From NCBI RefSeq assembly GCF_003018235.1, contig NZ_CP027437.1: 64,000 bases of DNA; one strand, 5' to 3'. The translations under genes were made by a program, and so were the position numbers. The notes under the pieces are model-generated. The model saw nothing but the letters and a program-made list of their open reading frames with translations. It was not told the origin of the DNA and did not search any database. Below, piece after piece: positions 14,410-14,682 of this stretch. Position 1 is the first letter of the stretch. Every line of letters begins with the position of its first letter. This DNA is from Escherichia coli (GTDB lineage Bacteria > Pseudomonadota > Gammaproteobacteria > Enterobacterales > Enterobacteriaceae).

Positions 14410-14682
14410 TCACTTCTGCGGGTAGTTGCGCCATATTGTTTTCCCTATACCATCTATCCCCATTTGTTTTTCAGTGCGATCAACCGACCGTTTCAGCGCG
14501 CCAAAACCATCCGGCGGCTCCGGTGGCCTCTGTGCCTTCCTGGAACATTCCAGCCGTCGCATTGCCACCTGTGCGCGTTCCTTGTCTGTCTCCACCAGCT
14601 GCATGACTTCACCCCATCGCGCGGCCGCCCTCCGGTAAAAGCCTTTCGACTCGAGTTCCTCCGCTATGCGGTCATGTACCAT
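14410..14682 (-). CDS. PerC-family transcriptional activator homolog
   Basis: 90 aa from ATG at 14682; motif LESKGFYRRAAARWGEVM matches the PerC hallmark as I recall it. Confidence 0.5.
   Translation of the reverse strand: MVHDRIAEELESKGFYRRAAARWGEVMQLVETDKERAQVAMRRLECSRKAQRPPEPPDGFGALKRSVDRTEKQMGIDGIGKTIWRNYPQK

Follow-up and report, generated by a model that had tools for sequence, protein, structure and literature searches.

A PchE-type perC gene carried as swappable cargo by a phage-inducible chromosomal island between phoQ and roxA in Escherichia coli

In this study, we analyzed a perC-like gene in the window, by which we mean the whole 64,000-nucleotide stretch of Escherichia coli DNA examined. 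The most probable reading, to which we give a probability of roughly 0.7, is that the gene is an allele of pchE, encoding a 'group 3' PerC homologue, that it is trans-acting cargo of a phage-inducible chromosomal island (PICI) of the EcCICFT073 / OI-51 type, and that it acts by the mechanism proposed below. The family and group membership of the protein is firmly supported. The feature is already known, since PICI PerC genes, the O157 orthologue and the annotation of the exact protein are all public, and the O157 orthologue, PchE, has been studied by several groups. The contribution made here is to annotation: perC marks the island as an EcCICFT073 / OI-51-type satellite, is placed in the PchE group and not in the LEE-activating group, and is shown as a swappable cargo cassette.

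The gene and its protein

The gene has the following position in the window:

14410..14682, minus strand, perC/pchE-like coding sequence of 273 nt, with the ATG at 14682 and the stop codon TGA at 14412-14410

The product of 90 aa opens with MVHDRIAEELESKGFYRRAAARWGEVM and has LESKGFYRRAAARWGEVM at residues 10-27. The original prediction had proposed a PerC-family protein of this length at this position, and a profile search bears it out: Pfam PerC (PF06069) covers residues 1-89 with positions 1-89 of its 90 (E=4e-38, 130 bits). The protein also matches phrog_994 (3e-42) and, more weakly, several 'transcriptional activator' families in PHROG, while no NCBIfam model was found for it. At least 23 NCBI contigs encode exactly this sequence, within the same island and at the same insertion site, and the identical protein is annotated in public assemblies as a PerC family transcriptional regulator. 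The PerC family is small, since a search of 1.84 billion representative proteins returned only 107 relatives at E<=0.001. In an alignment of 68 sequences from this search, R17 is invariant and L10, E11, G14, R18, A19, R22, W23, C46 and G75 are present in at least 90%. All ten of these invariant or nearly invariant residues are retained here, so the motif that the prediction had named as a hallmark does correspond to the conserved core of the family. Among sequenced phages, PerC-family genes turn up rarely (7 of 50,697 records), and those on plasmids are mainly of the EPEC type; perC DNA from pMAR2, used as a query, matched only EAF-type plasmids.

Comparison with three orthologues gave dN/dS values of 0.23-0.55, which supports coding, with 0.14-0.37 for the N-terminal 55 codons and 0.55-0.72 for the C-terminal third. 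The AlphaFold2 model (pLDDT 83.6) has helices at residues 5-13, 16-29, 33-50, 60-74 and 79-83 and is thus small and all-helical, as are PerC proteins (about 80-130 aa). In the prediction, the N-terminal ~50 residues, which hold the L-E-x2-G-x2-R-R-A-x2-R-W core, fold into a TPR-like unit of three helices; a linker rich in proline comes next, and then a C-terminal helix that evolves faster. The modelled fold is TPR-like and helical, and no DNA-binding fold was detected in the protein. PADLOC returned no defence-system match for perC or its neighbours, and scanning with Rfam revealed no RNA family overlapping or adjoining the gene; weak matches to STnc50 (E=0.053) and sR1 were dismissed as chance.

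The island at the phoQ-roxA site

The gene lies on an island with the following bounds:

10111..21505, no strand assigned, PICI carrying perC, bounded by 21-bp direct repeats ACTACACCATTAACTACACCG

The att repeats start at 10111 and 21485, and the island, which sits between phoQ and roxA (ycfD), is an EcCICFT073 / O-island-51-type phage-inducible chromosomal island. As expected of an EcCICFT073-type PICI, it is about 11 kb long, has int, alpA, att repeats and a replication gene followed by an iteron origin, and carries no lysis or tail genes; its gene order is that of EcCICFT073, O157 TR01 and ATCC 43894. Besides the integrase and the AlpA-type gene, it contains a C4-type antisense RNA, isrK and a DUF4222/RgdR homologue, and after perC come a 68-aa ORF and genes for a lambda E-like major capsid protein, a D-like decoration protein and a connector-like protein. 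Helper-phage induction and transfer have been shown for EcCICFT073 and EcCIEDL933 (bioRxiv 2022.09.08.507074; PMC6739421). The element was predicted to lie next to phoPQ, and it does: the end of phoQ is at 10024, and attL follows at 10111. The gene is near phoPQ because the attachment site of the island is there, as for EcCICFT073 / OI-51 (PMC3378721), and this adjacency offers no evidence of a functional link.

Several other features of the island were noted. The C4 antisense RNA (18345-18432, minus strand, 78.4 bits) and isrK (18457-18533, minus strand, 63.5 bits) are both over the Rfam gathering score. Their region may be a P1/P4-style RNA-based immunity region of the island; in related islands, Icd-like/Ash-type genes adjoin it. 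A 504-aa ORF at 18099-19613 encloses both RNAs and is probably spurious because its sequence looks non-coding. The DUF4222 protein (17322-17621, minus strand, 99 aa) has R20-G21-D22 and shows 90% identity to the one encoded by the island of the EDL933 lineage. That copy is taken, by position and length, as RgdR (ECs1581), a published type III secretion regulator; if so, the DUF4222 gene, rather than perC, would be the documented link of the island to virulence regulation. A 13-mer, GTTCCACGTTGTT, occurs in inverted orientation at 10149-10161 (minus) near attL and at 20149-20161 (plus) between int and alpA, and also upstream of the HK97 capsid gene of ATCC 43894 (about 8600-8615 of that locus). 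It is possibly an integrase arm site or another recombination or packaging site.

Relatives and group assignment

The protein is 82% identical to the O157 TR01/042 copy (WP_000233304.1), 81% to that of the EDL933 lineage (WP_000233299.1) and 73% to the EcCICFT073 copy (WP_000233305.1), against 40% (35/88, full length) to PerC of EPEC E2348/69 (pMAR2). By similarity it thus falls with group 3 Pch (PchE; 81-82% to the O157 copies) and outside group 1 PerC/PchABC (40% to EPEC PerC), the contrast with Pch groups 1 and 2 being drawn from EPEC PerC and from two homologues at 34-37% identity which we assume to be PchABC-like, their looked-up names being only the generic 'PerC family'. In the O157 copies, the EcCICFT073 copy and perC here, the gene comes directly after ssb, and each of these islands is inserted between phoQ and roxA. 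This is the location expected of a group 3 gene, after ssb in the island between ycfD/roxA and phoQ, and the PerC homologue of OI-51 was named PchE (PMC3378721). In O157:H7, the phoQ-roxA site holds either an E-type island (TR01) or an HK97-type capsid-forming island (ATCC 43894). We take the latter, by size, site and gene content, to be O-island 51 / CP-933C / Sp7 / EcCIEDL933 (PMC3378721; bioRxiv 2022.09.08.507074).

The end of the replication operon

The features from the origin to the end of the transcription unit are:

15717..15923, no strand assigned, AT-rich iteron region of ~200 bp with AAAGTGAG repeats (families D1-D4; GC 33%)
15346..15714, minus strand, extra 107-122-aa ORF between origin and 80-aa ORF, phrog_27268
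15100..15342, minus strand, 80-aa ORF, phrog_1231, in synteny with two related loci (L002 and L018)
14693..15103, minus strand, ssb, the cistron directly upstream of perC (TIGR00621, 57.9 bits, over the cut-off; phrog_44)
14683..14692, minus strand, ssb-perC spacer of 10 nt, with the Shine-Dalgarno-like run GGGGGTGAGG before the ATG
14381..14402, minus strand, intrinsic terminator after perC, GCCGGAGCAATCCGGC followed by T6

The iteron region sits directly after the RepA-family helicase gene; its sequence was set by eye against that of the corresponding intergenic region in O157. It is the probable PICI origin, and an origin arrangement of this kind has been described for PICIs (PMC6092414). 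Here we show a post-origin transcription unit consisting of orf107/122 (called as 107 aa in identical islands), orf80, ssb and, as the distal cistron, perC, ending at an intrinsic terminator. The terminator begins 8 nt past the stop codon and folds as RNA into a 9-bp GC-rich stem (-16.2 kcal/mol) followed by UUUUUUAU. With the ssb stop codon 10 nt upstream, GGGGGTGAGG before the ATG and the terminator behind, perC is indeed the last gene of the replication operon, as had been predicted. The promoter of the ssb-perC transcript probably lies in the iteron region, a placement by analogy with O157:H7 PA20, where 5′ RACE put the start of the pchE transcript 10 nt upstream of ECs1586 on an ECs1586-ECs1587-pchE mRNA (PMC7369912). 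Judged by its place among the genes, the 80-aa ORF may correspond to ECs1586, with which that transcript begins.

A swappable cargo slot

The junction after perC recurs elsewhere. A terminator of the form GCCGGAG(C/A)AATCCGGCTTTTTT is found after perC, or directly 3′ of ssb in PerC-less islands, and a second copy, at 11942-11963, follows the connector gene. In islands of the O157/042 type, pchE is followed by an additional small ORF that has a terminator copy of its own. Another slot is bracketed by a 26-nt inverted repeat (11264-11289 / 11893-11918), which encloses a terminase-small-subunit gene in O157 TR01, possibly Rpp-like by its position, and different DNA here. No ORF for a terminase small subunit was found in the 11264-11918 slot of the window, so this island may lack a packaging-redirection gene. 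These repeated junctions may be exchange points for modules and cargo, perC included. For the satellite, perC is cargo that can be dispensed with, held in a swappable slot that ssb and the conserved junction terminator delimit, and not a required part of a packaging circuit.

Proposed mechanism

By analogy with orthologues that are 81-82% identical, perC would be expressed at a low basal level from the origin-adjacent promoter, independently of satellite induction, and its protein would act in trans on host promoters. In O157, pchE has basal expression that drops on SOS induction (PMC6265319, PMC7369912). When PchE is overexpressed, csgD/curli, eae and lpfA1 go down, while flhDC and, 20-fold, fliC go up (PMC6265319, PMC7369912), and two papers, both citing Porter 2005 and Iyoda 2004, report PchE as inactive on LEE1 (PMC6265319, PMC11773190). 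The protein studied here, if overexpressed, may be expected to shift the same genes in the same directions and to leave LEE1 unactivated. These PchE phenotypes come largely from plasmid overexpression, the effects of a pchE deletion being slight (PMC6265319, PMC7369912). The targets of perC could also differ from those of PchE because 18-19% of the residues differ, mostly in the C-terminal third.

At the molecular level, the protein probably remodels H-NS/StpA nucleoprotein on AT-rich DNA and would not be a classical sequence-specific activator, judging from group 1 Pch. Activation of LEE1 by those proteins depends on H-NS/StpA/Hha silencing being in place, and they lower H-NS occupancy; ChIP places Pch at many chromosomal loci, Pch displaces H-NS from LEE1 DNA in vitro, and the authors found no direct Pch-H-NS interaction (PMC4764244). 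Interference with phages was considered as another function of perC and rejected: when post-origin genes of EcCICFT073, which the passage does not name one by one, were cloned singly, only c1503 blocked lambda, according to the text of PMC6739421.

The capsid promoter and islands without PerC

Downstream of perC, a control region at 14022-14130 (minus strand) contains a candidate promoter for the capsid operon at 14060-14087, with a TTGCAC -35 element, a 16-nt spacer, a perfect TATAAT and the palindrome TTGCAC-aaa-GTGCAA. It is accompanied by an upstream block, TAATCATTTCATAATTTGCAA, at 14103-14123 and by a hairpin with conserved arms, a variable loop and a T-run at 14037-14056. This hairpin starts so close to the -10 element that it may serve as an operator or as a terminator in the leader. 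A scan for consensus promoters missed 14060-14087 because its -35 matches only 3/6, and we treat it as a conserved candidate promoter; the 300 nt around it have 34% GC. Nearer to perC, a second hairpin at 14170-14200 (-24 kcal/mol, z=-4.9) has A-runs and T-runs on both sides and is thus a possible bidirectional terminator. This hairpin and a ~170-nt stretch at 14206-14380 are conserved in the window, 2014C-3338 and JNEC-KY176, including the PerC-less one, and together are possibly a small RNA, a cos site or a spacer.

The capsid promoter region is present in 559 of 5,426 complete E. coli genomes. Its contiguous form joined to perC occurs in only 6, and about 157 of the 559 match the intergenic half of the probe and have the promoter region without perC; examples of genomes that match only this half include ATCC 25922, Nissle 1917 and O18. 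Four PerC-less loci were sampled (2014C-3338, 2014C-4587, ATCC 25922, 300709), and in each the capsid, decoration and connector genes are intact and ssb runs straight into the same terminator. When 11 distinct promoter sequences were aligned, the promoter, upstream block and leader hairpin showed the same degree of conservation whether or not PerC was present, and no position in these 11 sequences co-varied with PerC presence or was allele-specific.

An IMG/VR scan with the single perC protein returned 80 loci, all with PchE-type relatives only, in which the module after the PchE-type gene was E-type in 44, HK97 in 30, neither in three and too short to judge in three. The PchE-type gene lies 120-650 nt upstream of the capsid module in all 77 informative loci. 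At up to 3 mismatches, the 14103-14123 block was present in 44/44 E-type loci and 0/30 HK97-type loci; the EDL933-type leader is different DNA without this block, and JNEC-KY176 is the only cf-PICI that shares it. Among the three loci of neither type, the one inspected (L031, 6891-8810) has a third type of packaging module after the PchE-type gene, with a 639-aa ORF that appears by eye to be a fusion of prohead protease and major capsid protein, and no ssb upstream of perC.

Alternative explanations

One alternative, of which the original prediction had suggested activation of the late capsid promoter, is that PerC is the late activator or counter-silencer of the satellite, opening 14060-14087 for the capsid operon while its host effects are spill-over. 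A perfect TATAAT behind a weak TTGCAC -35 with a palindrome, in AT-rich DNA of the kind bound by H-NS, together with the relief of H-NS silencing by group 1 Pch (PMC4764244) and the 77/77 placement upstream of capsid modules, would fit such a role. No published test of it was found, and PerC is absent from the searched text of two cf-PICI preprints; the searched literature likewise holds no apparent test of a PchE-type effect on the satellite itself. However, any gene that ends the first of two modules would show this adjacency. A dedicated late activator should always be found together with its target promoter, and a DNA site should be shared upstream of every capsid module that follows it. 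The promoter, equally conserved and without allele-specific change, occurs with intact capsid, decoration and connector genes in PerC-less islands, and three unrelated capsid modules with different upstream DNA follow the same PerC type, the HK97 module of the EDL933 type without the block. The lack of a shared site and the basal, SOS-repressed expression of the O157 orthologue, the opposite of a late-gene switch, argue against a dedicated late activator, and we consider this role unlikely. A broader version, in which PchE-type PerC primarily serves the satellite as a general counter-silencer of AT-rich junction promoters before any packaging module, with secondary effects on flagella, curli and LEE and with a PerC-family gene acting in trans for PerC-less islands, is likewise doubtful in our judgment.

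The same prediction also suggested a virulence activator of the PerC type, of which the family membership stands and the activation is less well supported: activation of virulence regulators has been shown only for group 1 PerC/PchABC, a different PerC branch, and that is the branch to which the reading applies. Gram-negative PICIs carry PerC alleles of which only some activate LEE (PMC6092414), and PMC11773190, citing Porter 2005, reports LEE1 fusions as unaffected by the EcCIEDL933 and EcCICFT073 copies. A role in LEE activation comparable to that of EPEC PerC or EHEC PchA/B/C, with a possible connection to phoPQ, would be consistent with the shared Pfam family, the full-length 40% identity to E2348/69 PerC and the RgdR homologue, a known type III secretion regulator, on the island (PMC3378721). 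But perC groups at 73-82% with PchE and the EcCICFT073 copy, both reported as LEE1-inactive, the phoPQ adjacency is that of an att site common to the island family in CFT073, O157 and other strains, and no LEE is visible within the window, so that we find this reading very improbable. The direction of action varies within the family, as the PerC-like EcCIMP1_025 of a PICI repressed LEE1, and its authors suggest an ANR-like role (PMC11773190). PerC could accordingly be an ANR-like anti-activator or anti-regulator, mainly a repressor, that binds a host regulator and not DNA; its TPR-like helical fold without a detected DNA-binding fold and the lowering of csgD, eae and lpfA1 by PchE point the same way. 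The presence of Pch at many chromosomal loci by ChIP, its displacement of H-NS from LEE1 DNA in vitro (PMC4764244) and the 20-fold rise of fliC with PchE (PMC7369912) speak against it, and we regard it as quite unlikely. The reading that we prefer is a pchE allele carried as cargo.

Comparison with known systems

EPEC PerC and the group 1 proteins PchA/B/C share with perC here the Pfam family, the size, the core L-E-x2-G-x-Y-R-R-A-A-x-R-W, C46 and G75. They differ in that EPEC PerC, only 40% identical, is encoded by the perABC operon of a plasmid, and in that EPEC PerC and group 1 Pch activate LEE1 whereas the PchE group is reported as inactive on it. EcCIMP1_025 of the PICI EcCIMP1, which is likened to perC here by its description, is likewise PerC-family accessory cargo of an E. 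coli PICI, with a reported identity of about 40% to the copies of EcCIEDL933 and EcCICFT073; it is reported to silence LEE1 in Citrobacter rodentium, and EcCIMP1 is without structural genes (PMC11773190).

EcCICFT073 has the same gene order as the island studied here, including the 68-aa ORF, the E-like capsid, D-like decoration and connector genes. Its PerC-like protein is nearly identical over the N-terminal 57 residues but ends after 82 aa with a different C-terminus, in contrast to the 90 aa found here. EcCICFT073 has a primase-type replication gene and c1503 (RppA), whereas this island has a RepA-family helicase and, in the slot corresponding to c1503, no TerS/Rpp-like ORF.

The closest known counterpart is PchE (ECs1588-type) of O157:H7 OI-51 (cf-PICI EcCIEDL933). 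Downstream of pchE, the EDL933 lineage has an additional small ORF and a module of the HK97 type (capsid, protease, portal, terminase); the island studied here has a lambda E/D-like module and a contiguous intergenic region. The 16-17 substitutions that separate PchE from the protein studied here are concentrated after residue 56. Both are 90 aa long and 81-82% identical over 87-88 residues, and both are encoded directly after ssb and before the terminator, in islands of one family that share the phoQ-roxA insertion site.
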